Assembly: GCA_000165345.1 (NCBI GenBank)
Contig: CM000435.1
Coordinates: 1,056,001 to 1,120,000, forward strand
Reading direction: 5' to 3'
DNA length: 64,000 nucleotides
Shown here: positions 7,353 to 59,210 of the stretch, piece by piece
Layout of the letters: each line of letters starts with the position of its first letter
How positions within the stretch are numbered: position 1 is the first letter of the stretch
Made by a program: the position numbers and the translations under genes
The notes under the pieces: model-generated
Seen by the model: the letters and a program-made list of their open reading frames with translations, nothing else
What the model was told of the DNA's origin: nothing
Database searches by the model: none

Positions 7353-7481
7353 TGAAAGAATCTCATTTATTCCACTCTGCTTTTTTACTGAACGAGCAAC
7401 ATTGGCATTTTTAGATCGTAATGGCGCCAAAGCATGACATGCATGCAAATTTATTGTGGGGCGGGAGAAAGAGTCTGGAAA

Positions 7482-27847: not shown

Positions 27848-28666
27848 TATTAATGGCTCTAAAATTCCCAAGTTATAAAAGAATATTGTACAATTATCTT
27901 TCTATGAGCCAGTTACACTGTATATCATAACTCCTTCTTGTATTTTTCTCTTTTATTTTTCCTTTTTTCTCTTCTTCCAGATAATTTCTCTTTTCTCTTT
28001 ATTAAATGCTTTTACATGCAAAAATGCACCAAATTTTGAGATTATGCCGCCAAAAATGATTGTCTTTAATTATATTCCCAATTAGAACCAGAGGAATTAA
28101 TTTGAATGAGTGTTATAGATCGAACTTTTTTAAAGCATTTCTATAAAATATGAACTCAACATATTTGGATTCTTATATTCTTTAAAACTTACCTTGGTTA
28201 AGTTTGGACTGATCTAACTTACCAGAATATTAGAAGCCTTGATTTCCAAATTAATTATAGCTTTTATTATCCCTAATAATATAGAAGGGATTTTTAATAT
28301 AATATATCTGATCTTGAGAAATGATTACTCTGTTTATGAAGGAAATCTGAAAAGAAAAAAACAAAATTGAAGTTGAGTAATATTAATTTATTAGGTGTGG
28401 GAAGATGAAAATTGGTTTCTGAACTGATGAAAAGATAGACTGCATTGAACTGAGTTAAACAAGAAATAATTAATAATCTGAAATATAAATTTCTATAAGC
28501 CAATAATAAATTAATCTTCTTGCTGTTTTTGAATATAAATCTTTATCATATATTGATCAGCTTTGGCTGGAAGAATAATTAAGAATGATTTGCTGTATAT
28601 AGGGAGTCGTTATATTGTTTATTTGGATTATAAGATTTGCATACAATACAGTAAAATTCTTTTCTA

Positions 28667-30805: not shown

Positions 30806-30900
30806 TTCTTCCTTTTTTATTTTGAAACTCTCAAGATGAGAATATTTCTTGTTTTTAAAAAATATATTTTCAAAAACTATTACTTTTACTATCCTGTAAT

Positions 30901-30975
30901 TGCATGCGTGGGGACCATATTTGCATATACCGTCTTTATTGGCATGCATACTTGCAAATTTGCATGCGCACTTGT
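30901..30975. promoter_or_regulatory. Cluster of four GCATGC-type boxes upstream of the PA14 gene
   Basis: GCATGCGTG…GGCATGCATAC…TTGCATGCGC…CACATGC within 75 bp, about 100 bp upstream of the proposed ATG at 30805. Confidence 0.35.
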
Positions 30976-31217
30976 CCACATGCTTAATATTAATTTAATT
31001 AAAATATATATGAAATTCCAATATATAAATTTCAAAGTTTTATTTGTTAGTTAAAAGAGGTAAAATTTCAATATTAACCCTACTTTGATTTTTTTTTTTT
31101 ATAATTTAAATTTAAAAATTCTATTTATAGTTAATACTAAAAAGGATATAAATATAGATATATGTTATTTTATTTAGAAATATCTGGATACTTTGATTAA
31201 TTGAACCAATTTATGCC

Positions 31218-32405
31218 TTATTTTTTTATTAACAAAAAGCATAAAACGGCCAAAACAAGCAAAGCCCCAAACCCTAAAACCAAATAAAATGTATTACTAG
31301 ACAAGAACGATTGCAGACTGTTTGGAGGTTTTCCACTGAAGACGATTTGTCTTCCTAGCTGTAACTCTCTGCTAACCTCTCTTGGCACCTTCCTGCTAAT
31401 CTGTACCTTTTCTGTATATTTGTAATTCTTCTCTGCCTCGTCCTTATCTTCATCTTCTTTGTTAGATGATTGTGCGTTTTTTGATACCCTCCCATGTTCA
31501 AATTCCTCAAAGTCCTCCTCATCTTCATACTCCTCCTGCTGTACCGTATTTCCAGGATAATCTTTCAAAAGTCCCTGAACAATTTTATATTGTGCTAACT
31601 GTGATTCAAGCATCCTTGAACACGACAAACGGAGGCAAAACTTATAAAATCTCATATCACATGATTTTTTTTCTTTGCATTTAGCTTTAACTTTAAATTC
31701 ATATGGTCTATAAACCCCAGACCTATCAAGTGGTAAAGAAAATGATCTAGAAATCATTGTCATGGTTTCTTTCGTCTTCTTGTGTTTTAATTTTAATGGA
31801 TTCAAATTATGGGTAATCGGACAAAGAGAATTTCCTCTTGATGCCCTAACATTCATACCACGCATATTAATCTCCTCCAAGGTTTCATCTAAATCAATCT
31901 GAAATTCAATTGGAGGAATTGTCTTACCTTTTGGCTTATTGATCAAGACCGCAATGTTAAAAGTGACAGTGGAATAAAGTGAAGTATAACTACCTGTTGA
32001 AAATGCTGAGTAGGCAGAATTATAGTTAAAATTCTCCAACTGGCATTTACTTAAATCTATGGGTTCATTTTCTCCCCAATCTGCACTTAAATCCTCGAAT
32101 GTATTCCCACTTATCTTTGAATTTGAATATATTGAACCATTTGCCAGTAAAATCCTTTCAAACTTTCCTAAATTCCATCCACCGCAAATATGTGTTAATG
32201 GTTTAAATGAGTTCAATAAGCACTGACTACAAAATACTGATTGACCACATGATGTATAATAATTCGGGTTATTGGCCGTTTTACAGCCAAAGTTCTTGCA
32301 TTGTTCTTCCGGAGTAAGTCCAAATAACCTAGTAGTTTTTGCATTTGAAGCAAAAGTAAGGTAAAATTGAGAAAATAGCCATATTAATTTGAAAATAGCC
32401 CACAT
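31218..32405 (-). CDS. Cys-rich type I membrane protein (signal peptide plus C-terminal TM), 395 aa
   Basis: ATG checked. N-terminal signal MWAIFKLIWLFSQFYLTFASNA, a Cys-rich ectodomain, the TM helix LVLGFGALLVLAVLCFLLI, and a terminal KK. Confidence 0.5.
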   Translation of the reverse strand: MWAIFKLIWLFSQFYLTFASNAKTTRLFGLTPEEQCKNFGCKTANNPNYYTSCGQSVFCSQCLLNSFKPLTHICGGWNLGKFERILLANGSIYSNSKISGNTFEDLSADWGENEPIDLSKCQLENFNYNSAYSAFSTGSYTSLYSTVTFNIAVLINKPKGKTIPPIEFQIDLDETLEEINMRGMNVRASRGNSLCPITHNLNPLKLKHKKTKETMTMISRSFSLPLDRSGVYRPYEFKVKAKCKEKKSCDMRFYKFCLRLSCSRMLESQLAQYKIVQGLLKDYPGNTVQQEEYEDEEDFEEFEHGRVSKNAQSSNKEDEDKDEAEKNYKYTEKVQISRKVPREVSRELQLGRQIVFSGKPPNSLQSFLSSNTFYLVLGFGALLVLAVLCFLLIKK

Positions 32406-37047: not shown

Positions 37048-38123
37048 AAAGATTTCCAATCTTAAGGCCTGTTTTGCAGTAATCCTTTCTGTTGAGCTGG
37101 GATTTAATGAAGATATTATTAGTTCAAAGAAAGCTTTGTCTTCTTTATTGATAAGTTTTAACAAGTCCCAATTTGTTTTAAAAATAGGAAGAACTAGTCC
37201 AGATTCTGAAATTGAAGGTAAACTCTTTAAATAATCCAAGCTTGTTCCTAATGGAGTTCCAACTAATCTAAAAATACCAAATAGTTGGTCAATCTCATTC
37301 CTCCCATTAAACAACGCCTTTCCAGTTAGGAGCTCCAAAGCTATACATCCAAAGGACCACATATCGCTAGCAAATAGATCATTTGAATTTCTTGTCCCTA
37401 AAAGCCTTTCTGGACTTTTATATTTCAAATTTGTCAAAATCTGAAGTTGTAAAAAATTGAAAAAAAAAACAGTTAATTAGTCAAATTCAAGTATTTTTAT
37501 TGCATCTTTTCACTATTATTTGATATTACTCTATGCTCTCAGATTCGCCTTTTTAATTCAAATTACTATTGTTAGCTGTATTAAACTAAAAAACTTAAAA
37601 CAGTAATTTTCATCAAAAAATAATCCATCATTGAGCAATAAAATAACTATTTTGTTTGTAAATGACTTACCTTGTTGCATTCAATTATCTTATTATTGGT
37701 TTCAGTGGCCATTCCAAAGTCACAAATCTTGATATTGAAATCCTTACTTACTAAAATATTCTCAGGTTTCAAATCATTATGAGCAATTTTGAGGCTATGA
37801 ATATAATCAATTCCTTTTAATATACCAAACAATATCTTTTTCTTCATGAAAAAGTTATTAGCCTCTCCTTGAAGTATTATCTTTCTCAGATCTGCTGGAA
37901 AATATTCCAGGATTATCGTAAATAGTCCATTCTCGTTCATGAAAGAGCCATATGTCTCAACTACATGTTTCCCCCCAAGCTTTCTAAGCAAGGCCTCCTC
38001 TCTTTTTAAATCATCATTTTTCTCAACTGAATTTGCAGTTTTATTAACTATTAGCTTCCCTGATTCCGAATCTCTTAAAAGTTTGACTGTACCGAAAGTT
38101 CCCCCACCAATGAAAAAATCCAT
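37033..38123 (-). CDS. CDK-like (CMGC) serine/threonine protein kinase (two exons: 37671..38123 and 37033..37440), 287 aa
   Basis: Exon 1 holds IGGGTFGTV, HNDLKPENILV and DFGMA, and ends …IIECNK|GTAAGT. Exon 2 follows the acceptor …TTCAG and begins ILTNLKYKSPERLLG (the APE motif), so kinase subdomains VIII-XI continue in frame. The ORF-track 'M' of 37033..37437 is TTG. Confidence 0.7.
37534..37637 (-). ncRNA. Candidate box C/D snoRNA inside the kinase intron
   Basis: On the minus strand: 5'-TGCTC-aAUGAUGG…UGAUGA…CUGU…aauCUGA-GAGCA-3'. A 5-bp terminal stem (TGCTC/GAGCA) brackets a C-like box and a canonical D box. The intron is 230 nt, long for this genome. Confidence 0.3.
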
Positions 38124-38298: not shown

Positions 38299-41200
38299 AT
38301 GTCAGAAAAGGACAAAAGTGTCCATGCTAAGAATCAAATGAGCTCGGATGTGCTAAGGGTAAGGTATAGACGAGAGCTCAATTCCCTCTCTCTTGAACCT
38401 GAAACTCATCAGAGTTTTGACAGAAAAAGCCTTGCTATTTGGTTTTTTGAGTGGTATGATTCAAAAGGTAGAAGGCTTCCATATGGAAAAAATGACAAGA
38501 GATTGAATGAAATCCCAGAGGAAGAGCTGGAATTTTTGCATGGAATACTGAAAGAGCTCCCAGGAGATTTCCCAATGATCAGATACTCAGCTCTATGGTC
38601 CAAATGGTTATTTCCTAATGTTAATATTAGTCATTCTAGAAAATCCTTTGATTTTTGGTTGAAAATTATGAAAATTATGGAAGAAAAGTTCCCTACTGTT
38701 TATGTGAATGATCTGGATCCTCTTATTAAGCTTGTTTCTGATTATTTGGACTCTGCCTCACCTAATGAATTTGAACTATGTTACGTAGGAGTCAAACTCC
38801 TTAGGAAGCTCGTTTCCATGTATATTCCTCCAAGAAAAGGCTTTGGAATAGTATCTTCCCGCCTATTAGAGTCTTTTGGAAACTTTTATGTAAAAGAAGG
38901 CTTGGAAAGTCCCTTTTTTATGCAAATTAAAAATGAGATTGCACAACTTATTCAAATTTGTGTGAATGATAAGCATTTGCCATCCTTTCTATCTATTCTT
39001 AGGAATGAAGTTTTTGCTTTAACTGGAAACTCTAAACAAAAATCTTCTTCTAACTACACATTTGACTTTTATAAGGCATTAGTTGGCAAAGGTTCCAAAT
39101 TTGATTGTTTCATTCCTCTTATTATAAAGAAGATTCACGAGGTTGAAAGATCTAATTATAAAGAAACCCAGACTTCTAATAGTATTGGTGGTGATTATCT
39201 TCTATTCTTTCTCTATTTGAGCCTAAATCTGGAAGATTTGAAAGAATTCTATGAAAAGGCTAATTATGTTAATGAATGCTTTAACTTCTTTATTGGAGTC
39301 AATACTTTCAATATTAGAGAGTCTGATGACGAGTTTGGGAACAATTTTAAGCTTAGAATCTATGAATTAATCCTTGGGAAGCTTCAAGAAAGCATTCTTA
39401 GAGATACTTTAAATCCCAAAATCTGGAAAACTATAGAAAATTCTATTATTATCGATCCCATCAAATGTTTAGAATTCCTCCCAAAGATTTTTCTCTCTAG
39501 TAAGGATGAAAAACTTGTAATTCCCAAATCTGCAAAAGTTTCTCATAAATATTATATATATGGTCCTCTTGAAATTCTACTTGGCTTTATTTCAGGAGAA
39601 GATTTTTCTAGTCATATTATGGATTCATATATGCCAACTTCTGAAAGTTCATTCTCTTCCTCTCTTACTATTTGTATCACCAAGTACATTCTTACATTTA
39701 TAAAGCTTCATGACCTTCCATTATTCTTTAATTCTCTCTCGAAAGTTCTTTTGAAGAATATTAAGACAAAAGACCTTCATGAATTAGAAGCCATCTTTCT
39801 AAGTACTCAAGTTCTTCAAATTATTAAGTATAATATTGGTATTTCTATTCTTCCAGGTCAAACTTCTGATATTTTTGATTCATTCCTTGGATTTCTTAAG
39901 GGAAATTCTTCTAATTCACTCCTATATGAGTCTATCTCTACTTCCTGGATTGGAATCTTAATGATTTCTATTCCCTTATCTGAATCTTCTATTCCAATCT
40001 TAGAGGATGCTGCAATCCAAATACACCAATACATTAGTAATTCAAAAATTACTCAAACTACATGTATTTTGGGACTTATACATCTCTTGAGAAAGTTATT
40101 AACTTGGAATATTGAGCAAAAAAACGATCTACTTGAAATTCTTAACTTTTATTATGACAAGATTCTAACACAAAATTACCAAGAAAAACCTATACAAAAG
40201 GATTCAATTCATCCTTCATTCAATCTCTATTGTATGTTTGTACAATTAATTACTCTGATTACTAAGCTTAGAGATTTAGGAACTCTCAATCAAGATGATT
40301 TTAACAAGATTTTTGTTTTATATGGACTAATTTTAGATGGTTGTTCAAGTTTAATTCCAGATGATCATTCTTGGTCCATACGAATTAACAAAATTCTTAC
40401 CAAGTTTATCCTTCAAAATATTTCTTATTTAAAAGGTATTGAGAAATTTATCAAACATTACGTAGAAAGTAAAAATAAAGATAAATTCTCAGAATTTGGT
40501 TTGTTTACAAGATCTTTATATCAAGAATATATTCAAACCAATAATGTCTCAAACTCACTTTTTAGAAATCTGGTCCAGATTCCATATTTGACAAGTCTTA
40601 TGATATATTTGGCTTTACAGGAGTTGGATAGCTTTATAGAAACTGGTAGGAATAAAAGAAGAAGATTAAACTTTGATCAATCCTCTCAAGAACTTGGTTT
40701 CTCTATGTCTCATGATTTACAGATGATTGATTTTTGGAATCGAAAAGATCTTGTGACTTACTTCATTAATAATAGGACTGAATTATTACTTGGAGACATA
40801 TTTTCAGAAATTTCTAGTTTATACCTAAAATTAGTTTTTGAAATTGATTATGTCTCAGGCTCAAAAAATGATCATTCTTCCTCATTACATCTTCTTGAAA
40901 AAGCTGTCGAAGGAATATTGAGATGGATTAATATAGAAAGCGAGATTGGAGCAAATGATTTTGTAATTAAATTCTCTAAAGCCATTTTTAGTCCTGAAAA
41001 TGAAGAAAACAAGACAAATTTATTAGTTAAGTTCTTAGAATTAATTAAAGTTGTCGAAACAAATACCAAATTATCTCAAAATCTGAATGTTATTCTAAGA
41101 AAATCAGTCAATAATGCTTTTGAATCTGAAGAAGATTCAAAAAAAACTGGTGATTTTGTAATAAGTCAAATGGAATCTTTGGATTGGTGGTGGTGGTTGA

Positions 41201-43113
41201 ACATTAAAGACAATTTCGAAGGTCTTTTAACTCAAAATATGTCTTGGGTTAATCAAATACAATTATCCATAGATTTATGCTCGGAAAATAGTTTTAAATC
41301 AATGAAAGAGAGAATTGTGGGAAATATTGACATTTTTCAGACTCTTAATGGATTGAAACATAAACTAAAAGTTAAGAAAAAAATGGAATTGCTTTACTCT
41401 ACAAAGATTTGTGAACTTTATCTAAAAGCTGATCCTAATATTCAGAGATGGAATTTGAATTATGAGGAAATAATTGATGGAGAATTGGATGAGACACACA
41501 AGAATTTGCCTTTATTAAAAATTAAAACTGTAATTGACATTTTGGGTGATCTTTTAAAAAAGATTCAAAAAGTTATTGATGATCCTGAAAAGAAAAAGTA
41601 TCTTATAAACGAAGTTTTTACTCTGATTGATTTGATCATTAGTTATTTGAAACAGGTAATCCAAATTATTAATAAAATAATATCAGAATTGAAAAAGAAC
41701 CAAGTAGAAATGAAGCTTTGTTTTGGATTATTAGAAAAGACTTACTCTGAAACTTTTAAGTTAATTTTGGAACTTATTAGAATAAATCTTGAATTTGGAA
41801 TATATGGGATAAACCAATATAATTATGATTTACCAAATTTTAAAAATCATCAAAAAACTGTCTCGGAATGGAGTAGATATATTGTCAAATGTATTTTGGA
41901 AGGAAGTTCAATAAGAAAAGAAGACTATAGTCATTCATTTCAAATTTATAGACAAATGGATATTTATGAGATAGTTTCAATATTAATAAATGGTTCAATA
42001 ACCAGTCTTATAAACTATGCAATTAATGAAACAATGGTCAAAGTTGATTTTTCCAAAGAAGAGAACTTATTTGTATTATTAAGTTACTTGGATTTATTTT
42101 GGGGAGTAATTCGTAACAAAGGTCAGATTTATAGATGTTTATCTCCTTGTTTAAAAGGAGGATTATTTTCTAAGATTTCAACATGGGGAGCTTCAGATAA
42201 ATTAGAATTTAGTTTTGAAATAGTGATTTCAAAATTGATAGATTCTATAGAAAGAAGACAATCAAATATAAGGAATGAATATATTTTATATACTTTTTCA
42301 TTTATCAGACTAAGTAATATTATTTCAATTTTATATTCATGTTGTATTGGATGTTATATAGAAAGTATTAAAGAAAATCCAAGGTTAAGTCTAAATAATA
42401 GCCGAATAATTCCCATTTCTAATATGTTATTAGTAATTTCATCAAGACTTTCAAGTATTGGTCTTGGATTAAGATTGGATGATCTGGAGGAAGTTATAAG
42501 AAAGGAAAGAATAGATGATAATACAAGAGAATCATTTTATTTGGCTTTATTTGAATGTATCACAATAAGTCCTTATATACCTTTATATACTTTGTTAAAT
42601 CCTCTTTGGGATCAATCAAGTAGAAAAAAGAATAGAAATCAAATGAGTACAGGTCATTTGGATGTTTGGATTTCTCAATTTCACTTAATAGAGGAGAATT
42701 TAAAGAATTTGGTGAATTTAGGAGATCAGATAAGTCAACATCCTTTAGGACTTAACCTTTATACTCTTCATAACAAGAGGATAAGCAGATTATATCCTCT
42801 AATAGTTTCTCAAATAACTAAGAATAAAGTTCAGAGATATTCAATATCTCTTGCTTGCGATTTAATTAACTATATAAATATAATAAATAAGAGACTAGAA
42901 TTAGTGGATGAGGATGAAGAACATTTGAGAGAAATTATTAATATAAATGCTCAAATTATCAAGAATTCGTGTTTGAATCCAATTTTATCAGTTATTGATG
43001 ATCATTGTAAACAGAGTTTATTCACAATGTTAAAGGATGAGCAGAGAATCATTTTCAAACAAATAAACAAAAAGAATTCTGAGCTTTTATCATTTAGTAA
43101 ATTAGAAGGTTAG
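38299..43113 (+). CDS. Large alpha-helical (HEAT/ARM-like) hypothetical protein, 1604 aa
   Basis: ATG checked. Uninterrupted 4.8-kb ORF. A palindromic tandem E2F-like site lies 30-50 bp upstream. No family recognised. Confidence 0.65.
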   Translation: MSEKDKSVHAKNQMSSDVLRVRYRRELNSLSLEPETHQSFDRKSLAIWFFEWYDSKGRRLPYGKNDKRLNEIPEEELEFLHGILKELPGDFPMIRYSALWSKWLFPNVNISHSRKSFDFWLKIMKIMEEKFPTVYVNDLDPLIKLVSDYLDSASPNEFELCYVGVKLLRKLVSMYIPPRKGFGIVSSRLLESFGNFYVKEGLESPFFMQIKNEIAQLIQICVNDKHLPSFLSILRNEVFALTGNSKQKSSSNYTFDFYKALVGKGSKFDCFIPLIIKKIHEVERSNYKETQTSNSIGGDYLLFFLYLSLNLEDLKEFYEKANYVNECFNFFIGVNTFNIRESDDEFGNNFKLRIYELILGKLQESILRDTLNPKIWKTIENSIIIDPIKCLEFLPKIFLSSKDEKLVIPKSAKVSHKYYIYGPLEILLGFISGEDFSSHIMDSYMPTSESSFSSSLTICITKYILTFIKLHDLPLFFNSLSKVLLKNIKTKDLHELEAIFLSTQVLQIIKYNIGISILPGQTSDIFDSFLGFLKGNSSNSLLYESISTSWIGILMISIPLSESSIPILEDAAIQIHQYISNSKITQTTCILGLIHLLRKLLTWNIEQKNDLLEILNFYYDKILTQNYQEKPIQKDSIHPSFNLYCMFVQLITLITKLRDLGTLNQDDFNKIFVLYGLILDGCSSLIPDDHSWSIRINKILTKFILQNISYLKGIEKFIKHYVESKNKDKFSEFGLFTRSLYQEYIQTNNVSNSLFRNLVQIPYLTSLMIYLALQELDSFIETGRNKRRRLNFDQSSQELGFSMSHDLQMIDFWNRKDLVTYFINNRTELLLGDIFSEISSLYLKLVFEIDYVSGSKNDHSSSLHLLEKAVEGILRWINIESEIGANDFVIKFSKAIFSPENEENKTNLLVKFLELIKVVETNTKLSQNLNVILRKSVNNAFESEEDSKKTGDFVISQMESLDWWWWLNIKDNFEGLLTQNMSWVNQIQLSIDLCSENSFKSMKERIVGNIDIFQTLNGLKHKLKVKKKMELLYSTKICELYLKADPNIQRWNLNYEEIIDGELDETHKNLPLLKIKTVIDILGDLLKKIQKVIDDPEKKKYLINEVFTLIDLIISYLKQVIQIINKIISELKKNQVEMKLCFGLLEKTYSETFKLILELIRINLEFGIYGINQYNYDLPNFKNHQKTVSEWSRYIVKCILEGSSIRKEDYSHSFQIYRQMDIYEIVSILINGSITSLINYAINETMVKVDFSKEENLFVLLSYLDLFWGVIRNKGQIYRCLSPCLKGGLFSKISTWGASDKLEFSFEIVISKLIDSIERRQSNIRNEYILYTFSFIRLSNIISILYSCCIGCYIESIKENPRLSLNNSRIIPISNMLLVISSRLSSIGLGLRLDDLEEVIRKERIDDNTRESFYLALFECITISPYIPLYTLLNPLWDQSSRKKNRNQMSTGHLDVWISQFHLIEENLKNLVNLGDQISQHPLGLNLYTLHNKRISRLYPLIVSQITKNKVQRYSISLACDLINYINIINKRLELVDEDEEHLREIININAQIIKNSCLNPILSVIDDHCKQSLFTMLKDEQRIIFKQINKKNSELLSFSKLEG

Positions 43114-44859: not shown

Positions 44860-45846
44860 ATGAAATCTATTTTCCAGTTAATTTTCCTTGCTACATTCTT
44901 TCTTTTTGGGATTTTGAATGCTTTACAGATTCATGAATCTGTGACTTCTGCTTCAGTGGATAATTCTCTCTTGGGAAATGAAGTTTTTGACATGGATTCT
45001 GAAGTTGAAACCAAAGTTGATGAAAAAACCAATTCTCAAACTGATAATAAAATGACCACAGAATTTGATTATGATGAAAGTAAATCATCCAACTCAGATA
45101 TGTCTAAACAAACTGGTACATCCAAAGATACCAATACATCTTCACAAACTTATAATTCCAGTAGTGAATCTGATATTTATGAAAATGAATCAACAGCTTC
45201 TACTCAAGATTTTGAAACTTATCAAAGTATGGATAAGACTACTACTGGTACTACTACTAGTACTGATAAGAGTTATGATCAGACATCTAATGTTGATACA
45301 ACTGTTCAAGCAACTACCATGCCAAAACAGACTAGTAAAGTTATGAGAGCTGATCAGACCAATTCTTATAAGACTGTTACTCCTATGGGAACTTCTGATG
45401 ATTTGGAGATTGAAGATTATACTGTTGGCAAAAATACATATAACAAATCAGATGATGGTTATCAGAAGGATGTTACTAAATATCAATCAACTTCTACTAC
45501 ACCAACAGAAACTTCCACAACTAAGCATGTTACATTTGATGGAGAAGGATTCTTAAAGGCTGTATCTAAGTTGGTCAATATTAGAAAGAGAGTTAATACA
45601 GGAAATGATTCAGTTGCTACAACTAAAGATTATCAAAAGAGTGTTACTAGGGATACTACTGATTCTACAAAAAAGCCAACTGATAATCAAGGCGATCATG
45701 ATAATGATGATGAAGATGATCAAGAATCATTCTTTGATAAATATGGAATTCCAGAGTATGTATTTTGGATTATTGTATATACAGTTCCAGTCTTGTTTGT
45801 CCTCTTACTTTGCCTCACTTCTTACTGTTGTTGCTGCAGAAGATAA
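44860..45846 (+). CDS. Mucin-like Ser/Thr-rich type I membrane glycoprotein, 328 aa
   Basis: Signal peptide MKSIFQLIFLATFFLFGILNA. A long T/S/D/N-rich ectodomain. C-terminal TM helix IIVYTVPVLFVLLLCLTSY followed by CCCCRR, a possible palmitoylation site. Confidence 0.65.
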   Translation: MKSIFQLIFLATFFLFGILNALQIHESVTSASVDNSLLGNEVFDMDSEVETKVDEKTNSQTDNKMTTEFDYDESKSSNSDMSKQTGTSKDTNTSSQTYNSSSESDIYENESTASTQDFETYQSMDKTTTGTTTSTDKSYDQTSNVDTTVQATTMPKQTSKVMRADQTNSYKTVTPMGTSDDLEIEDYTVGKNTYNKSDDGYQKDVTKYQSTSTTPTETSTTKHVTFDGEGFLKAVSKLVNIRKRVNTGNDSVATTKDYQKSVTRDTTDSTKKPTDNQGDHDNDDEDDQESFFDKYGIPEYVFWIIVYTVPVLFVLLLCLTSYCCCCRR

Positions 45847-46153: not shown

Positions 46154-47353
46154 TTACTTAACTAAGTATACATCATTTGAGATTATTGGACGAGTGTCTA
46201 TGTAAAAACGATTATTATTTATACTTTTATAAAGCTTCTTACACTCTTTCTTCTCTCTCAAGTTAGTTTTCTTTCTTACAAGGTGAGTATCATTTGAATT
46301 ACTTTTTCCTTCATTAAGTTCTTTCTCTCCGTTTTTCAATACATTTCTCTTCTTAATATTCTTTTCCAGCTTTTTAACATCCTCCTTTTGTTTATTTCTT
46401 GGGATATCCTCATAAGATTCTGGTATTTCTTCTTTTTCAACCTTTTCATTTCTAACTTTTTCATTTAGATTCTTCTCTTCTCTATTCTTCTCAACAAAAA
46501 GATTATCATCTTGAATATTATTTATATCTTTGGTTACTTTCACTTTGAAAGGAGTTTTAAGGTTACGAGTGCTGTATTTAAGATTTGACACGTCATTATT
46601 AAGACCATCTATAGTTTTTGTGTCTTCAAAATTAAAATTATTGTTGTAAATAAACAAATTTCTTGAGTTGGAATAGTCATTGATAATTTTTTCAAGAGAG
46701 TCGTTATCTTCAGGATTAAATTCGTTTTTTCTTTCTATTCCTATTTCTCTTTCATCCACAATTAAAGTCTTATCACTTTTTTCGCTACTAAGTATGAATT
46801 CAATTTGATCATATTTTTGAAAAGTATGGGTTTTGTCTAAAGTACTTACTCCCTTGTAAAACTTAGAATTATCACATACATTCAAGATATTAAAAGCTCC
46901 ATTATAATTTGTATCATTAAACAAAATATTATACATTGCATAGTTTTCTGTTAATGTTAGTGATTGAAAATCACTTTCTTTAAGTTTTTCAACAAGTTGA
47001 GATTTTTCCATGGATGTCAAAATATGATCCTCGGAATTTAGTATTTGAATATTATCATTGTAATTAACCCATGAAATAAAATTATATTTGATTAAACTCA
47101 AAATTTCTTTTTTTTGTTTTCCAGTTAATTCAGTTTCACCTAATTCTGAAAAGTATGTGGGAAAGAATCGAAAACATTCTTCTTCTTTCTTAGTAATTTG
47201 AATCATATGGTTATTCTCATTCCTTGTTAACTTAATATTTTCAATAAATGTTACTAAGGCTGGATCATTTGAATAGGCCTCTTTGAATTGGATAAATATA
47301 TTAAATAGAGAAAGAATGAGAAATAAAAGAACTTTTTTTGGTTCAAAAATCAT
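46154..47353 (-). CDS. Secreted Lys/Asn/Glu-rich hypothetical protein, 399 aa
   Basis: ATG checked. Signal peptide MIFEPKKVLLFLILSLFNIFIQFKEAYS. No TM helix. Confidence 0.5.
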   Translation of the reverse strand: MIFEPKKVLLFLILSLFNIFIQFKEAYSNDPALVTFIENIKLTRNENNHMIQITKKEEECFRFFPTYFSELGETELTGKQKKEILSLIKYNFISWVNYNDNIQILNSEDHILTSMEKSQLVEKLKESDFQSLTLTENYAMYNILFNDTNYNGAFNILNVCDNSKFYKGVSTLDKTHTFQKYDQIEFILSSEKSDKTLIVDEREIGIERKNEFNPEDNDSLEKIINDYSNSRNLFIYNNNFNFEDTKTIDGLNNDVSNLKYSTRNLKTPFKVKVTKDINNIQDDNLFVEKNREEKNLNEKVRNEKVEKEEIPESYEDIPRNKQKEDVKKLEKNIKKRNVLKNGEKELNEGKSNSNDTHLVRKKTNLREKKECKKLYKSINNNRFYIDTRPIISNDVYLVK

Positions 47354-52657: not shown

Positions 52658-54833
52658 TTAAATGGAGGAAATGCTTAAGTTAACGTTTTTTTTGTGATTT
52701 AAATCTTGATTGACAGGCATACAGCTAATTCTGTATTTGGTTGCATACTTCCACTCAAGGATTGCATGCAAAATATAAATAGTTGAAATAATATATAATC
52801 CGATTTCGAACGAACCAAAGAAATTGGTTGTTATGTGAAGAATCAAAGAGATAAAAGCTATAATAAGACCATCAACAATGGTAACAATAATTCCAGAAAA
52901 TGCAGATAATTTTCCTAATAAAGGATATTAGAAATGTTTTCAAAAGTATGATTTTGAGATAATTAATTAAACCTACCTTGTTTCTTCTCATCATCCATAT
53001 GTAGTTGATATATAACACTCAACCCAATCTTCGGAACCGAATAACAACCAAAGAAAATGGCTGAAAAGGCAAATATTGCACAAAGACCTGCAATAAAAAT
53101 GGTTAACATATTTCTCAAAGTATTAGGATGCGCGCCTTTATTTTTGGCATTGCATGCATTTATGTGGATAACTTACATGTAATCTGCATGAAAAAAAATT
53201 GAGAATAAAATTTCATAATGGAGATAGATACTGGGAGAATGATGACTGATAGATCTGCAATTGAAATTTGAAGGAATAGTCGGTTAAGGGTATTTTCATT
53301 GAGGAACTGAAAAATGAATTTGGAATAGGAGATATCAGTGGATGAAGGTGTAGATTCTGAAGAAATTGTATGATTTTCTGTGGAGAAGTTGCACTCAAAG
53401 TCTTTATTTGCATTGACTTCAAATTCTTTGTTTTGAATATATTCTTTTTGATACTTCCATGTAACAATTAAGCTTGATAGTTTTCCAAATCCTAGGGTAA
53501 TTGCTACTAGAAGTAGAGATAGAGGTGCCCAATAGCTTTTAGGGTTTTGTTTTTCGAAAGAAAACTTTTCTAACAATTCTTTTGAGGTATGGATGATTGT
53601 TAGAGGGATAATTATTGAAATCATGACATCTTCAAATGCTGTTTCAAAAGCCAAACAGAATATCCGATTTCTAATATTGATATCTTGGCAAACAAATACA
53701 AAACCTTCTGAGAAGTTAGAGATTTTGTTCTGGATTTCTTTGATAGTGGATCTGGGAACAAGGCTTGCAGCGTTTTCTTCTAATTCAAAAACTTTTTGAG
53801 CTCTCTCTTGATTAATATTTAGATAGTATTCGCCAGAATCTTCGTTTGTGGTTAATCTAGACTCTTTGCTTACTGGGATTCCAAATTTATAATATATAAT
53901 TGATATGGTTGAAAGAGTTTGAAAAATTGAAATTATCATAAGAGCTGGAATCTCAATACCAGAATTACCAAGATCAAAACTAATGTATTTATTCAATTCC
54001 ATATCTGAAAATTCTACATTTGTTACTTTCATTAAATTATACCAAAATACTAAACATAGTATTGAAAAAGCCAGAATAGGATTCAGTAATACAAATGAAA
54101 CATCAAAGATTGTCAAGTGAGTGTATACCGCTTGAGATTTTTGAGTTGCTGTGATTTCTATATCATATTGATTGGAAAGATAATTCAGACCTCCACAATC
54201 CAAATCAACAACGTTTAATAATGAAATAAGTACACCATCTAAAGCTATTAGTATATAGAATTGGGTATTACCAATAATTTCGTATATTGATTCATGCCCA
54301 TAATATCTTCCAACAACATAAACAAAAGGAAGATAAGAACTCCACATAAATGATCGTAGCATTGTTACATAAACAAGGATAGTTCTCATTGAGAACTTCT
54401 CAGAAATCACTCTTGATACTGGCGACATTATTACGAGCATCAAATTAAAAACCAGTCTAGCATTTCCAGCTGCTAACTCTGACTCCATAATAAATGTGAT
54501 TACTGTTCCAAAAAAACCCCACCAAATTGCTGCTGATATTACACTAATTAGTTGTCCATAGACAAACGATCTATAAATTTGGTCTCCATTTCTTTCTCCT
54601 GAAAAACTACTTGAAAACCAAGAAAGTGTGCTATAAAATAAATAATATATCCATCTCTTTAATATTATGAGTTTCTCTCTGACTATTACCATGAAAGTCG
54701 GTATCCTTCTTTCTTCTAAATTTAATTCTGGTGGAATTATTCGAATTGTAGGTATCTGAAGGTATCCTTGACTCAGACGAGGAAACTCATCTCTATTGCT
54801 GTTTTCATATTCTAGTCTATAACTTTCTCCCAT
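52658..54833 (-). CDS. Polytopic (about 12 TM) membrane protein, possibly an MFS-type transporter. Proposed three-exon model: 53177..54833, 52977..53087 and 52658..52914, about 674 aa
   Basis: ORF 53160..54833 ends 13 nt after an in-frame T|GTAAGT donor. The acceptor TTTTATTGCAG| at 53088 continues in frame (C LCAIFAFSAIFFGCYSVPK…KKQ), and a second intron (donor CAAG|GTAGGT, acceptor TTTATTAG|) joins to GKLSAFSGIIVTIVDGLIIAF…SISSI*. The added exons supply three more hydrophobic helices, giving a 6+6 arrangement. Alternative: 52658..53109 is a separate 127-aa membrane-protein gene starting ATG 53107-53109. Confidence 0.45.
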
Positions 54834-55458: not shown

Positions 55459-56425
55459 ATGTATGGAAGCATCGGAATATCAATATTTCTATTTTTGTTT
55501 GCGCTCAGATTTTATTTTTGGGTTAGAGGAAGATTTTCTTTTAATGTTGGGAGCAATGAAAAGCTAGAAAGAAAATCGAATTGTGGCGAGAAAGTTAAGA
55601 TATTAGTAGTTTTGGGTTCAGGAGGTCATACAGCAGAACTATTAATGTTATTAAAGGATATGGATTTGAGAAATAAAGTTTCCTTAAGCTGCGTAGTAGC
55701 AAACACTGATAAGTTTAGTTTGGAGAAGGCAATAAATGAATTTTCTGAGAATTTGAAGGTGGACAAAGACAATGTAAGGAACTATGTGGAGTTTTACAGC
55801 ATAAAAAGAAGTAGAGAAGTTGGACAGAGCTATTTTTCATCAGTATTCACGACATTGGCATCTTTTATGGATTCAATGAGGATATTATTTCAAGATAAGT
55901 ATGATTTAATAATGGTAAATGGCCCTGGTACATGCATTCCTATATGCTTTGGGTCTTTGATATTGGAGGTAAGTAATTCTATTAAGAGGGGTTAGATGCA
56001 TGTAAATAGGTAGAAAGTGTACACATTTGAATTAATTACTTTGAAATTACATTAAACAATTTCCCCTCGACCAAAATTATTAAATATATTAAACATATTT
56101 TGAATACTTTTATTATCCCTTTAAAATTATAGTTTCTACTTATAAAAAGCTCAAAGATTGTATTTATTGAAAGCTTTTGCCGTACAAAGACTCTCTCGTT
56201 AACGGGTAAACTATTATTGCCATTTGTAGACAAGTAAGTTAAAAAATGATGATTAAAAAGTTTGAAATTAAAGTTAATTTGACTAATTTATGAATGAAAT
56301 TATTTTCCACTTTATTTAAATTATAAAAATACTAAAAAAAAATTTTTTTTTCAAGGTTTATTGTTTTATGGCCATATTTAGCTGATAAATACCCTAAGTG
56401 CGAATATTTGGGTGTATTATTTTAA
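55459..56425 (+). CDS. ALG14: UDP-GlcNAc transferase subunit ALG14 (three exons: 55459..55968, 56133..56233, 56356..56425), 226 aa
   Basis: The ORF-track start at 55432 is GTG; the first ATG is at 55459. N-terminal TM anchor. ALG14 motifs ILVVLGSGGHTAELLML and NGPGTCIPICFGSLILE. GTAAGT donor, then exon 2 FLLIKSSKIVFIESFCRTKTLSLTGKLLLPFVD, a split Lys codon, then exon 3 FIVLWPYLADKYPKCEYLGVLF*. Confidence 0.75.
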
Positions 56426-56550
56426 TTCCCATAGTTAAAGAATTAACTGATAAACATAATATAGTTATATTTGAATTATTATAGGGCCGATTAGAGTTTT
56501 AATTGAGTTATATAACATAAGTATAAGAATAGTTGACAGTAGTTTTAAAG

Positions 56551-57882
56551 ATGTCAGAAGAAATTTTGGATATTGGGGAGATTGCAAGGAGATCAAGAGA
56601 ATCAGGAATACAATTATCTTCCAGTACAGTTGAGGAGAGGAATGCAATTCTAGAACACTTTGCAGAAGAAATATATCTGAATAGAAATGAAATTCTAGAA
56701 GCAAATATGAAAGATATGGATAATTCTAATAAGAATAATATTTCTGAGCCAATGAAAATGAGATTATTATTGGATGAATCGAAGCTTAAGGCATGCATAA
56801 GCTCTGTTAGGGATGTAATGAATTTGGAAGACCCTTTAGGAAAGTATACGTTATCTAGGGAAATCACAAGTAATGGGCTAAAACTATATAGAAGAACTTG
56901 TCCAATAGGAGTAATTTTAGTTATTTTTGAAGCAAGACCAGAAGTAGCTATCCAAATTAGTTCGCTGACTATAAAAAGTGGGAATGCAGTCATATTAAAA
57001 GGCGGAAAAGAAGCAATAAATACTAACAAAGCAATTTTGAATTGCATAGAAAATGCAATTAATCAAGTAAAAAAAAACTATATTAATATAAATAGAGAAA
57101 TAGTACAAATGGTTTTTTCTCATGAAGATGTAAATAAACTTCTTTCCTTTAACCAATTTATCGACCTTGTCATACCTAGAGGGTCTGGTGAACTTGTCCA
57201 CATGATAAAAAAAAATACGTGTATACCGGTATTGGGTCATGCAGATGGTGTGTGCATGTTATATGTGCATGTGGATGCAAATATATCAAAGGGAGTTGAA
57301 ATTGTAATAGATGGGAAATTGGATTATCCAGCTGCATGCAATTCACTGGAGACTTTGTTAATTCATAAAGATAAGTTATCCGAGTTTTTACCAGCATTAT
57401 TGTTGAGATTAAAGGAACAAGGAAAGCACATAAAGTTTTATTCTGACAAGGAATGTTTAAAATACTTGGAAGGTGAGAATGATGTTTGCGAGTTGATTGA
57501 GGATTTGTATCATCATGAGTTTAGTTCAAATGAAATGTGTGTCAAGTCAGTTTCAAGTATGGATGAGGCTATTGCACATATTAACCAATATGGTTCTCAC
57601 CATACAGATGTAATTTTGACTCAAGATGAAAAATTAGCAGCATCATTCATGAATAGAGTTGACTCTGCATGCGTATTTCACAATTGCTCTTCAAGGTTTT
57701 CAGATGGATATAGGTTTGGGTTTGGTGCTGAAATTGGAATTAGTACAACAAGGATTCATGCTCGTGGCCCGGTAGGTCTGGAAGGTTTGTTGACATACAA
57801 ATACACGTTAAGAGGTCAAGGACAGACGATAACTCAGTTCAAACACGGCAAGTTTACTTTTACAAAGAGAGATATTGTATAG
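56551..57882 (+). CDS. proA: Gamma-glutamyl phosphate reductase (glutamate-5-semialdehyde dehydrogenase, ProA-type), stand-alone, 443 aa
   Basis: The ORF-track start at 56533 is TTG; the first ATG is at 56551. Catalytic region PAACNSLETLLIH and C-terminal signature CSSRFSDGYRFGFGAEIGISTTRIHARGPVGLEGLLTYKY, diagnostic of GPR. No fused glutamate-5-kinase domain lies upstream. Confidence 0.85.
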   Translation: MSEEILDIGEIARRSRESGIQLSSSTVEERNAILEHFAEEIYLNRNEILEANMKDMDNSNKNNISEPMKMRLLLDESKLKACISSVRDVMNLEDPLGKYTLSREITSNGLKLYRRTCPIGVILVIFEARPEVAIQISSLTIKSGNAVILKGGKEAINTNKAILNCIENAINQVKKNYININREIVQMVFSHEDVNKLLSFNQFIDLVIPRGSGELVHMIKKNTCIPVLGHADGVCMLYVHVDANISKGVEIVIDGKLDYPAACNSLETLLIHKDKLSEFLPALLLRLKEQGKHIKFYSDKECLKYLEGENDVCELIEDLYHHEFSSNEMCVKSVSSMDEAIAHINQYGSHHTDVILTQDEKLAASFMNRVDSACVFHNCSSRFSDGYRFGFGAEIGISTTRIHARGPVGLEGLLTYKYTLRGQGQTITQFKHGKFTFTKRDIV

Positions 57883-58118: not shown

Positions 58119-59210
58119 TCAATTACATTTGTGGCTTAAATAGGCCCCAATTGCTCCAAAAAATCCATCCAAATAATGGAAAAAGACATTAACTTTATCA
58201 TTCAGCATGTAAGAGTATTTTTTAATGGACTTGATTATGATCTTGTGGTGATTAGAGACGTAATTTCCACAAAAAACTATGTTTTCATATTTATAGTTGG
58301 ATGATATCAAGCATATAAGGTATGACAAATCACTATACATCATATTTACAATATTGTGGACAAATTTTTCCTTTTGCTCAGCTTCTCCGAGATATTGAGG
58401 CAAAGATAAAGAGGTAATAGAGGACTCCTTAACAAACTCTTTAAAGAAGCAACCACTCGAATGTGTTGATTCACCTAAATTTTGTCCGTTCTTCCGTTCA
58501 TAGCTTGAATATAGCTTTAATAAGTCACCGTAATTCTCAACTCCCAGTAATTTTGAAATCCCAAATACAGTACCTCCACCAAACCTAGTCCCAGAAACTC
58601 TTTCGAATTGATTTTGGTTCTCGACTCTGATTATTGAGACACCTGATCCAACTGAAATTACTAAACTTGGAAATATTCTGGTTTGAGAGTCCATTCTAAC
58701 AAGAAATGTTTCTCCTTTTAATATACTATAAAAATGCGGCTGCTGAAGGTTGCCTGTCGACAAGTTACCAAAGAGCTCAAAACATCCATTTACAATGCTT
58801 CTCATTTCGTCAAATCGGACAACTTTAATTTTGTATTTTGACTCAAGTATAGTTTTGAACTTTACTGATCCTCCGCCAGTCATTGGAACACTATTGGGTT
58901 TGTATAGTCCTCTTTCCTTAAGGAATCCAAAAATGTCCCCAATCTGTAATTCTATTTCTTTGTTCACTGGAGCTATCAGACAAAATATCACATACTTCCT
59001 ATTAGTTCTCAGTGCCTCAATATCGTAGAAGTTCTTTCTCATATTTTCAAGTTCATATTCAAAAAGCTCATCATTCTCCAAGCTTAATGTATAAACCAAC
59101 TTAATTAAAGTTCCTCCTATATCGAGCCCATAGTGACTATCGTTTGGAACTTGATTTAAAACTCCTACACCAATAATATCTAAACTATATTTTTCAAAGA
59201 GGGACTTCAT
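58119..59210 (-). CDS. Pantothenate kinase, eukaryotic type II (Fumble domain), 363 aa
   Basis: ATG checked. Motifs GLDIGGTLIKLVY and …GTRFGGGTVFGISKLL, the ASKHA-fold motifs of type II PanK. Confidence 0.8.
   Translation of the reverse strand: MKSLFEKYSLDIIGVGVLNQVPNDSHYGLDIGGTLIKLVYTLSLENDELFEYELENMRKNFYDIEALRTNRKYVIFCLIAPVNKEIELQIGDIFGFLKERGLYKPNSVPMTGGGSVKFKTILESKYKIKVVRFDEMRSIVNGCFELFGNLSTGNLQQPHFYSILKGETFLVRMDSQTRIFPSLVISVGSGVSIIRVENQNQFERVSGTRFGGGTVFGISKLLGVENYGDLLKLYSSYERKNGQNLGESTHSSGCFFKEFVKESSITSLSLPQYLGEAEQKEKFVHNIVNMMYSDLSYLICLISSNYKYENIVFCGNYVSNHHKIIIKSIKKYSYMLNDKVNVFFHYLDGFFGAIGAYLSHKCN

Follow-up and report, generated by a model that had tools for sequence, protein, structure and literature searches.

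The closest described counterparts of the Cryptosporidium parvum reductase ProA include the gamma-glutamyl phosphate reductases (GPR) of coccidia. In Toxoplasma gondii, G5K (TGME49_265010), GPR (TGME49_270550), and P5CR are separate genes, and their products are cytosolic by LOPIT (PMC7909243, including its Table S1). The GPR of Besnoitia besnoiti (P0306) likewise stands alone with a separate G5K gene, and both coccidian proteins belong to the same ortholog group as the C. parvum enzyme (PMC7909243). Table S1 of that study counts GPR orthologs in six coccidians and Chromera, and at least one ortholog each of G5K, GPR, and P5CR in C. parvum and in Cryptosporidium muris. Stand-alone ProA is also found in yeast (PRO2; PDB 1VLU), many other fungi, Aplanochytrium, Galdieria, and Perkinsus; the proteins from Besnoitia (42% identity) and Perkinsus (46%) lack a kinase domain. 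The fused arrangement, bifunctional P5CS, is represented by human ALDH18A1 (PDB 2H5G) and Arabidopsis P5CS2 (PDB 8J0E). Bacterial ProA includes a classical short form (413 to 420 aa, ending in GQVR) and a form with a long C terminus (425 to 445 aa), the latter in cyanobacteria, Clostridia, and Acidobacteria.

An earlier sequence-only reading of this locus had taken a fused P5CS to be the usual eukaryotic arrangement. This premise is too broad, given the stand-alone ProA of fungi and protists and the separate G5K and GPR genes of Toxoplasma. Because separate G5K, GPR, and P5CR occur in C. parvum, C. muris, coccidia, and Chromera, an unfused ProA is the apicomplexan norm, as in fungi and other protists, and is no anomaly. 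We conclude that the C. parvum gene cgd7_4940 very likely encodes a cytosolic, monofunctional, old, and vertically inherited ProA of the eukaryote type, which acts in a retained glutamate-to-proline pathway.

Identity of the C. parvum ProA gene

We analyzed a 64-kb window whose source is C. parvum chromosome 7; all coordinates below refer to this window. Two features define the gene and its predicted active site:

56551..57882, + strand: intron-less ProA coding sequence, 443 aa (cgd7_4940 / CPATCC_003713), from the open reading frame list, NCBIfam, and an exact match to EAK90457.1 / QOY40820.1
57337..57339, + strand: codon of Cys263, the predicted nucleophile, in motif YPAACNSLETLL, from the translation

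The open frame spans 56533..57882 (+). Its first ATG, at 56551, yields the 443-aa protein; upstream of this ATG are six in-frame codons, starting from TTG and preceded by a TAG stop at 56530-56532. We dismissed a 179-aa antisense open reading frame (56508-57047, -) as a side effect of coding on the other strand, since it overlaps the conserved ProA frame.

Results from the protein family models were consistent with a monofunctional reductase. The protein scored 482 bits against the equivalog NF001221 (glutamate-5-semialdehyde dehydrogenase; cut-off, 289) and 462 bits against TIGR00407 (proA; cut-off, 317); the matches ran over model positions 7-416 of 418 and 2-398 of 398, respectively. Against the model for bifunctional P5CS (TIGR01092), it reached 431 bits, short of the cut-off of 797, and matched the reductase half only (model positions 291-707). 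The sole Pfam domain was PF00171 (Aldedh), with no match to the amino-acid kinase PF00696 in a Pfam search of the protein, and the reductase domain begins at residue 8. Judged by its equivalog scores and coverage, cgd7_4940 is a predicted gamma-glutamyl phosphate reductase/glutamate-5-semialdehyde dehydrogenase (ProA, EC 1.2.1.41).

The protein carries the motifs EARPE at residue 127, LKGGKEA at 149, PRGS at 209, and GHADG at 229, as well as YPAAC(263)NSLETLL and, at about residue 400, RIHARGPVGLEGL; HARGPVGLEGL is present too. The motifs for catalysis and cofactor are thus intact, and they line up with their counterparts in the yeast, human, and plant enzymes of solved structure. In particular, YPAACNSLETLL aligns with YPAACNA(M/L)ETLL of Arabidopsis P5CS2, yeast PRO2, and human P5CS. 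Established knowledge of ProA and aldehyde dehydrogenases predicts that Cys263 serves as the nucleophile for catalysis in the aldehyde-dehydrogenase fold. The sequence-only reading had described a monofunctional ProA of 443 aa with intact catalytic and C-terminal signatures, and both descriptions hold, the first by the open reading frame list and the NF001221 and TIGR00407 scores above cut-off, the second by the motif alignments. Its doubt as to whether the gene was annotated in reference genomes can be set aside: the protein is identical to EAK90457.1 and QOY40820.1. The gene is thus confirmed as real, correctly identified, and already known.

Comparison with other reductases placed the C. 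parvum protein among several related forms. Besnoitia P0306 is 42% identical throughout the domain and shares the catalytic motifs, and coccidian and Cryptosporidium ProA have a C-terminal extension of the type ...(Y/F)T(H/K)R..(L/I) in common. Coccidian ProA is longer (530 aa), having an N-terminal extension of ~60 aa and a four-residue insertion near residue 60, whereas Cryptosporidium ProA lacks both. Yeast PRO2 is, like C. parvum ProA, monofunctional and of similar length, scoring 337 bits over query residues 10-431. PRO2 and other fungal ProA fell within the eukaryote clade with Cryptosporidium in a neighbor-joining (NJ) tree of 88 taxa; they differ in an identity of ~45% or less and, in yeast, in insertions at query residues 300-320. 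The reductase domains of human ALDH18A1 and Arabidopsis P5CS2 represent the same catalytic domain (337-340 bits) and share the motifs RFSDG(Y/F)RFG and EGLLT with C. parvum ProA, which, unlike P5CS, has no N-terminal glutamate-kinase domain. Bacterial ProA with a long C terminus falls in the same length class, is 46-48% identical, and has a C-terminal extension of the ...FTHKDL type in common with C. parvum ProA. Classical short bacterial ProA is more distant still (mean p-distance, 0.625).

Gene neighborhood and synteny

The ProA gene lies between two neighbors that are not part of it, as the sequence-only reading had proposed:

55459..56425, + strand: ALG14, UDP-GlcNAc transferase subunit, 226 aa, exons 55459-55968, 56133-56233, and 56356-56425 (Pfam PF08660)
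56426..56550, + strand: spacer of 125 bp from the ALG14 stop to the ProA ATG, from the sequence and exon mapping
58119..59210, - strand: pantothenate kinase (PanK, Fumble family), convergent, 363 aa (Pfam PF03630, 149 bits)

The spliced ALG14 translation equals P0123, and both ALG14 introns have the donor GTAAGT. The 125-bp spacer must contain the promoter and 5' untranslated region of ProA. With ALG14 directly beyond it, a kinase exon therefore cannot fit upstream of ProA. The earlier claim that no kinase domain lies upstream is accordingly borne out, both by this distance and by the Pfam and TIGR01092 results, and we found no ProB exon spliced to the gene. Downstream, 236 bp separate the stop codons of ProA and PanK.

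Orthologs were present in every sequenced Cryptosporidium species that we checked, with ProA identities of 58-98% in C. meleagridis, the chipmunk genotype, C. canis, C. felis, C. ryanae, C. bovis, and C. muris. The gene order of C. muris and C. ryanae runs RING, a gene of unknown function, ALG14, ProA, PanK, RING/RRM, and EF-hand. The C. parvum window agrees with this order over its extent, from RING to RING/RRM. The arrangement ALG14, ProA, PanK predates the divergence of the Cryptosporidium species.

Evolutionary origin

Our phylogenies were distance-based only, and Cryptosporidium has a long branch with a biased composition. NJ trees of 173 and of 195 taxa had backbone supports of 0-5%, and the Cryptosporidium branch shifted between runs. 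In place of these trees, we used a curated NJ tree of 88 taxa, rooted on classical bacterial ProA, together with four-cluster bootstraps. In the curated tree, all eukaryotic reductases, including those of Cryptosporidium, formed one clade (79% bootstrap) with Clostridia and cyanobacteria outside, although support for this clade collapsed under Dayhoff-6 recoding. The four-cluster bootstraps joined Cryptosporidium to eukaryotes at frequencies of 87-98% (20 states) and 68-88% (Dayhoff-6). A specific sister relationship between Cryptosporidium and coccidia was not recovered in the 195- and 88-taxon NJ trees.

Two sequences appeared as NJ "sisters" of Cryptosporidium ProA. For one of them (P0224, EukProt g1983), a homolog search returned no close relative; the search brought in the Besnoitia and Perkinsus sequences. 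For the other (P0141), the relatives were a EukProt protein and then Clostridia at 48-50% identity, and Cryptosporidium was not among the best 120 matches listed. The pairing of P0141 with Cryptosporidium is probably an effect of composition or long branches.

Taken on these distance trees and on sequence features, ProA looks eukaryotic in origin and does not look like a recent bacterial acquisition. Two departures from vertical descent have to be weighed against this. It is unlikely that the Cryptosporidium reductase is a split-off P5CS half, or what is left of an ancient transfer into the stem of the Apicomplexa, as opposed to the vertical counterpart of the coccidian gene. Translation as an ER-anchored ALG14-ProA fusion in some species is a separate and likewise unlikely reading.

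The first departure is gene fission, in which ProA would descend from a bifunctional P5CS after the kinase half was lost or split off, and not from an ancestrally separate ProA. Among the matches listed, the best outside the genus was the 763-aa P5CS of Mallomonas (P0011; 432 bits). In the 20-state NJ tree, Cryptosporidium was sister to the whole P5CS clade (68% bootstrap), four-cluster replicates paired it with P5CS over stand-alone eukaryotic ProA in 69-82% of cases, and its RFSDGYRFG and EGLLT residues are P5CS-like. Yet Cryptosporidium was sister to the P5CS domains and not nested inside them, and the C. muris sequence RFADGFRFG is nearer to the stand-alone type. Under Dayhoff-6 the P5CS grouping vanished and Cryptosporidium fell among stand-alone eukaryotic ProA, a pattern typical of attraction between two long branches. 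Separate genes are also the arrangement in the other alveolates sampled, namely, Besnoitia, Perkinsus, and, by the literature, Toxoplasma (PMC7909243). We therefore regard fission as quite unlikely.

The second is horizontal transfer from bacteria into the Cryptosporidium lineage, which the sequence-only reading had raised by analogy with several other metabolic genes of the genus. Many of the top non-Cryptosporidium matches among those listed were cyanobacterial ProA (46-48% identity, 400-420 bits), the coccidian ortholog was no nearer than bacterial proteins, and one large NJ run pulled the long Cryptosporidium branch toward classical bacterial ProA, at 3.5% support. ProA is also devoid of introns, but the majority of C. 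parvum genes are intron-less anyway. Against transfer, no bacterial sister group to Cryptosporidium had any support in the distance trees, where the 79% eukaryote clade includes it, and, of the four-cluster replicates with 20 states, only 0-13% placed Cryptosporidium with cyanobacteria or with Clostridia. Long-C-terminus bacteria fell outside the eukaryote clade of the curated tree; the cyanobacterial signature KMPPRGP is absent from Cryptosporidium ProA, which has RIHARGP as in other eukaryotes. The gene resembles its neighbors in composition: GC (0.339), GC3 (0.275), and RSCU distance (0.865) all fell inside the limits set by 22 other window genes, so that the codon-usage comparison proposed by the earlier reading gave nothing atypical; an atypical composition would be expected only of a recent transfer. 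Its place in the locus is the same in species from C. muris to C. parvum, and its distribution is not patchy, with stand-alone homologs in Besnoitia and Perkinsus and orthologs counted in coccidia and Chromera (PMC7909243). Terms for the ProA enzyme were absent, by word search, from a 2004 catalog of transferred C. parvum genes (PMC545779). Given the trees and four-cluster bootstraps, all from distance methods, together with composition and synteny, bacterial acquisition by Cryptosporidium is unsupported and, in our estimate, very unlikely.

Among the matches listed, raw similarity to cyanobacterial ProA (~420 bits, 46-48% identity) equals that to the best eukaryotic matches and exceeds that to Besnoitia. 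Because it is this high, the entire eukaryote-type ProA subfamily may have an ancient bacterial or endosymbiotic origin.

The glutamate-to-proline pathway

With motifs and HMMs, literature, and trees taken together, the sequence-only reading stands in part: monofunctional ProA and a kept route between glutamate and proline remain, and the fused-P5CS premise and bacterial transfer find no support. The literature agrees with a retained route: published pathway tables mark the step from glutamate to proline as positive for every Cryptosporidium species (PMC5146892; PMC7371110). Neither a G5K nor a P5CR gene was found within the 64-kb window; the presence of C. parvum ProB and P5CR is taken from the published ortholog matrix and pathway tables. 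Mass spectrometry has detected the cgd7_4940 protein, and RNA-seq puts the highest signal of the gene at 12 h postinfection (PMC12604037).

In the proposed pathway, glutamate would first be phosphorylated by the separately encoded glutamate 5-kinase. ProA would then take this labile gamma-glutamyl phosphate and, using NADPH and Cys263, reduce it to glutamate-5-semialdehyde; the semialdehyde would cyclize spontaneously to pyrroline-5-carboxylate. A separate P5C reductase would complete the route to proline, and this conversion would be among the few amino-acid conversions left in the reduced parasite. A literature search returned no enzyme assay or complementation for Cryptosporidium ProA. Our analysis shows the family membership of the C. 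parvum protein, its lack of a kinase domain, its genus-wide conservation and synteny, its host-like composition, and its eukaryotic neighborhood in the trees; we infer its enzymatic activity, the direction of flux, its cytosolic location, and the reason for its retention. A proline pathway kept by a reduced parasite is a reasonable, though not new, topic for drug-target and physiology studies.

ALG14-ProA fusion models and annotation

Some public gene models join ALG14 to ProA through one additional feature:

56414..56532, + strand: putative intron with donor GTATTA and acceptor AATAG, which joins ALG14 to ProA in some public models

If these models were correct, ProA would form the C-terminal portion of a 672-aa fusion (cgd7_4933), and the reductase would be tethered to the ER membrane. 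Splicing out the GT..AG interval at 56414-56532 brings the two frames into exact register and yields the public models of 672 aa (cgd7_4933, C. hominis PPS95654.1, and C. tyzzeri TRY50379.1); our reconstructed product was identical to P0126 at 666 of 672 positions. Annotations made independently for C. parvum Iowa II, C. hominis UdeA01, and C. tyzzeri fuse the two genes, and in C. felis a 725-aa model carries both Alg14 and Aldedh domains. The donor is nevertheless weak compared with GTAAGT in both real ALG14 introns, and the stop codon of ALG14 itself sits three codons past it. At the site of the C. parvum donor, neither C. muris (GGA|ATC) nor C. ryanae (GGT|TTA) has a GT, and both genomes are annotated with ALG14 and ProA as two genes. 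The newer Iowa-ATCC annotation also has separate genes, of 226 aa and 443 aa (PMC9713705), and the start of the 443-aa form coincides with the start of ProA orthologs elsewhere. The intron and the resulting fusion are probably an annotation artifact, and an ER-tethered reductase is highly improbable.

Product names at the locus are also shifted from one neighboring gene to another, with ProA labeled "pantothenate kinase 4" and ALG14 labeled "ALDH/gamma-glutamyl phosphate reductase." For discovery, the locus offers little, since the gene, its product name, and the conversion of glutamate to proline are already in CryptoDB/NCBI and in published comparative-genomics tables. Its practical value is curatorial and lies in these shifted names and the probably false ALG14-ProA models, which, being present in several genomes, can mislead pathway reconstructions.

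Identity and surroundings of the ProA gene

The feature is real and its identity as ProA (gamma-glutamyl phosphate reductase) is correct. It lies between two genes identified by Pfam, in the order that had been read from the sequence alone:

55459–55968, 56133–56233, and 56356–56425, forward strand: the three exons of ALG14 (PF08660), upstream of ProA
56533–57882, forward strand: open reading frame (ORF) of ProA, which from the first ATG at 56551 encodes 443 aa
58119–59210, convergent: Fumble-type pantothenate kinase (PF03630), downstream of ProA

Ahead of the ATG, the ProA frame contains six in-frame codons, the first of which is TTG, preceded by a TAG stop. The protein matched two single-function families end to end, namely NCBIfam NF001221 (glutamate-5-semialdehyde dehydrogenase, equivalog; 482 bits, cutoff of 289) and TIGR00407 (proA; 462 bits, cutoff of 317). 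Against the bifunctional P5CS model (TIGR01092), it scored 431 bits, below the cutoff of 797, and covered only model positions 291 to 707, the reductase half. Pfam identified an aldehyde dehydrogenase domain only. The motifs of the family (EARPE, LKGGKEA, PRGS, GHADG, YPAAC(263)NSLETLL, and RIHARGPVGLEGL) are all present and align, position by position, with those of the plant, yeast, and human enzymes of solved structure. These results confirm the 443-aa ProA of the sequence-only reading.

We found no ProB kinase domain upstream, in keeping with that reading. Both ALG14 introns have GTAAGT donors, and splicing yields exactly the public 226-aa protein. Only 125 bp separate the ALG14 stop from the ProA ATG, so a glutamate-kinase exon cannot fit in between. 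Furthermore, Pfam detected no AA_kinase or P5C-reductase domain in the larger ORFs across the 64-kb window. A 179-aa ATG-initiated ORF on the opposite strand (56508–57047, reverse) overlaps the 5′ region of ProA and most likely arises as a side effect of the AT-rich coding strand.

Conservation and annotation across the genus

The protein is identical to C. parvum EAK90457.1, QOY40820.1 (CPATCC_003713), KAL5367815.1, and WKS79187.1 at NCBI; its UniRef name is glutamate-5-semialdehyde dehydrogenase. In the literature, the chromosome 7 locus appears as cgd7_4940 or, as a fused model, cgd7_4933 (PMC9713705; PMC12604037). Orthologs occur in seven further members of the genus.

Identity of ProA orthologs to the C. 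parvum protein
C. meleagridis: 98%
Chipmunk genotype: 90%
C. canis: 82%
C. felis: 66%
C. bovis: 61%
C. ryanae: 60%
C. muris: 58%

C. muris and C. ryanae share the gene order RING, unknown, ALG14, ProA, PanK, RING/RRM, and EF-hand; the window follows it from RING as far as RING/RRM and ends there. Because this order is common to all three, ProA was at the locus before the gastric and intestinal species split. ProA is a housekeeping gene that is already annotated, syntenic, and present throughout the genus, and its pathway is already listed as retained.

Some annotations merge ALG14 and ProA into one protein, of 672 aa in C. parvum (cgd7_4933), C. hominis (PPS95654.1; UdeA01), and C. tyzzeri (TRY50379.1) and of 725 aa in C. 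felis. The putative fusion intron (56414–56532; GTATTA...AATAG) is weak and removes the final three codons and stop of ALG14. Where C. parvum has this donor, the sequence is GGA|ATC in C. muris and GGT|TTA in C. ryanae, with no GT at that position in either, and the newer Iowa-ATCC annotation splits the two genes (PMC9713705). The fusion is probably an annotation artifact.

In several public annotations, product names around 55459–57882 are also displaced by one gene. The name “pantothenate kinase 4” is attached to ProA in the C. parvum Iowa II, C. canis, and chipmunk-genotype annotations, and ALG14 is misnamed “ALDH/Gamma-glutamyl phosphate reductase” in several records. Shifted names occur in EAK90457.1, QOY40819.1, KAK9171764.1, and the C. 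canis and chipmunk-genotype orthologs.

Proline pathway and expression

The suggestion that the parasite keeps a route between glutamate and proline agrees with published tables, which score the conversion of glutamate to proline as present in every Cryptosporidium species examined and in Toxoplasma and as absent in Plasmodium falciparum (PMC5146892; PMC7371110). In T. gondii, glutamate 5-kinase (G5K; TGME49_265010), the ProA reductase (GPR; TGME49_270550), and P5C reductase (P5CR; TGME49_236070 and TGME49_271610) are separate genes whose products are all cytosolic by LOPIT (Table S1 of a 2021 review, PMC7909243). The same table counts one ortholog of each enzyme in C. parvum; one, two, and one, respectively, in C. 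muris; and orthologs in six coccidians and Chromera. It counts none in piroplasms and neither G5K nor GPR in Plasmodium. According to this literature, the complete proline pathway is present in C. parvum. For C. muris GPR, the table gives two, but there was one C. muris protein among the homolog matches listed.

Expression of cgd7_4940 is supported: a secretome study detected the protein by mass spectrometry, and the transcript reaches its maximum at 12 h postinfection (PMC12604037). Secretion is doubtful, because the secretome list includes many cytosolic housekeeping enzymes (PMC12604037).

By homology, a separate kinase would supply gamma-glutamyl phosphate to ProA. In characterized ProA enzymes, a thioester forms on the catalytic cysteine, phosphate is released, and NADPH reduces the intermediate to glutamate-5-semialdehyde. 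The C. parvum enzyme would likewise form the thioester on Cys263, its predicted catalytic residue, with release of phosphate; NADPH would then yield the semialdehyde, which would cyclize to P5C for conversion to proline by P5CR. We infer ProA activity, the direction of flux, and a putative kinase-reductase complex by analogy. A cytosolic location is suggested by the lack of an N-terminal extension and by the cytosolic T. gondii ortholog. One may speculate that the pathway is kept for the proline supply of secreted or wall proteins, for osmotic protection, or for NADPH turnover.

Origin of ProA

Animals, plants, and some protists, Mallomonas among them, typically carry a fused P5CS. The premise that eukaryotes normally use this fused form is too general, since unfused reductases occur in yeast (PRO2; PDB 1VLU) and other fungi (Pyronema, Tuber, Russula, and many chytrids), as well as in Aplanochytrium, Galdieria, Besnoitia, and Perkinsus, where the reductase domain starts at residue 11 without a kinase. 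A 759-aa Perkinsus olseni model (P0354) carries ProA at residues 11 to 428 and a C-terminal 3′-5′ exonuclease domain (PF01612); it is probably another merged gene model.

Our alignment separated classical short bacterial ProA (413 to 420 aa; GQVR end, IPVI...G.C, RPGVCN, and TDGG(E/Q)F) from a long type (IPVLGHADGIC, YPAACN, RF(A/S)DG(F/Y)R(F/Y)GFGAE, and a C-terminal ...FTHKDL-like extension). Cryptosporidium has the long type, as do all eukaryotic reductases, both stand-alone and P5CS, along with cyanobacteria, Clostridia, Acidobacteria, and others. The C. parvum protein scored 432 bits against Mallomonas P5CS, 431 against Aplanochytrium, 400 to 420 against cyanobacteria, and 403 against Pyronema, but such ranks carry little information because all long-type groups are ~42 to 50% identical to one another.

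Large neighbor-joining trees of ProA were unresolved. We rooted a curated 88-taxon tree on the classical type; in it, every eukaryotic sequence, those of Cryptosporidium included, fell into one clade without Clostridia and cyanobacteria (79% bootstrap). Cryptosporidium was sister to the whole P5CS clade (68%), a tentative placement inside the eukaryotic group, given the distance methods used and the long, AT-biased Cryptosporidium branch. Under Dayhoff-6 recoding, the P5CS link was lost, as expected if it were a long-branch effect, and Cryptosporidium took a poorly supported position among the stand-alone ProA of eukaryotes. Four-cluster bootstraps, with cyanobacteria, Clostridia, and classical bacteria as alternatives, placed Cryptosporidium with eukaryotic groups in 87 to 98% of replicates with 20 states and in 68 to 88% when recoded. 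Cryptosporidium ProA also has RIHARGP, as in other eukaryotes; cyanobacteria have KMPPRGP. GC, GC3, and codon usage of the gene were within the range of 22 other window genes, and the terms searched for the enzyme were absent from a 2004 phylogenomic catalog of transferred C. parvum genes (PMC545779). Nothing in these comparisons supports the proposed acquisition of a bacterial ProA by this genus.

Other features of the window

The GC content is ~0.33 to 0.37 over the first 40 kb and 0.26 to 0.30 at 40 to 56 kb. There was no Pfam match (E ≤ 0.001) for several long ORFs, at 38299–43113, 3463–4860, and 44860–45846 (forward) or at 6186–7448, 31218–32405, 46154–47353, and 53160–54833 (reverse); one of these encodes 1604 aa. 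Directly 5′ of ALG14, a 557-aa ORF is hydrophobic and multipass in appearance. Three reverse-strand ORFs had domain matches:

26042–27871, reverse strand: 609 aa, strong Aa_trans match (PF01490), one of the amino-acid transporters that this parasite depends on, ~29 kb from ProA
28667–30979, reverse strand: 770 aa, PA14 and F5/8 type C (discoidin) domains
37647–38123, reverse strand: 158 aa, match confined to the N-terminal half of the protein kinase profile (positions 7 to 151 of 263)

The kinase-like gene probably runs on past an intron or frame change, and the domains of the 770-aa ORF suggest a secreted carbohydrate-binding or adhesin-like protein.
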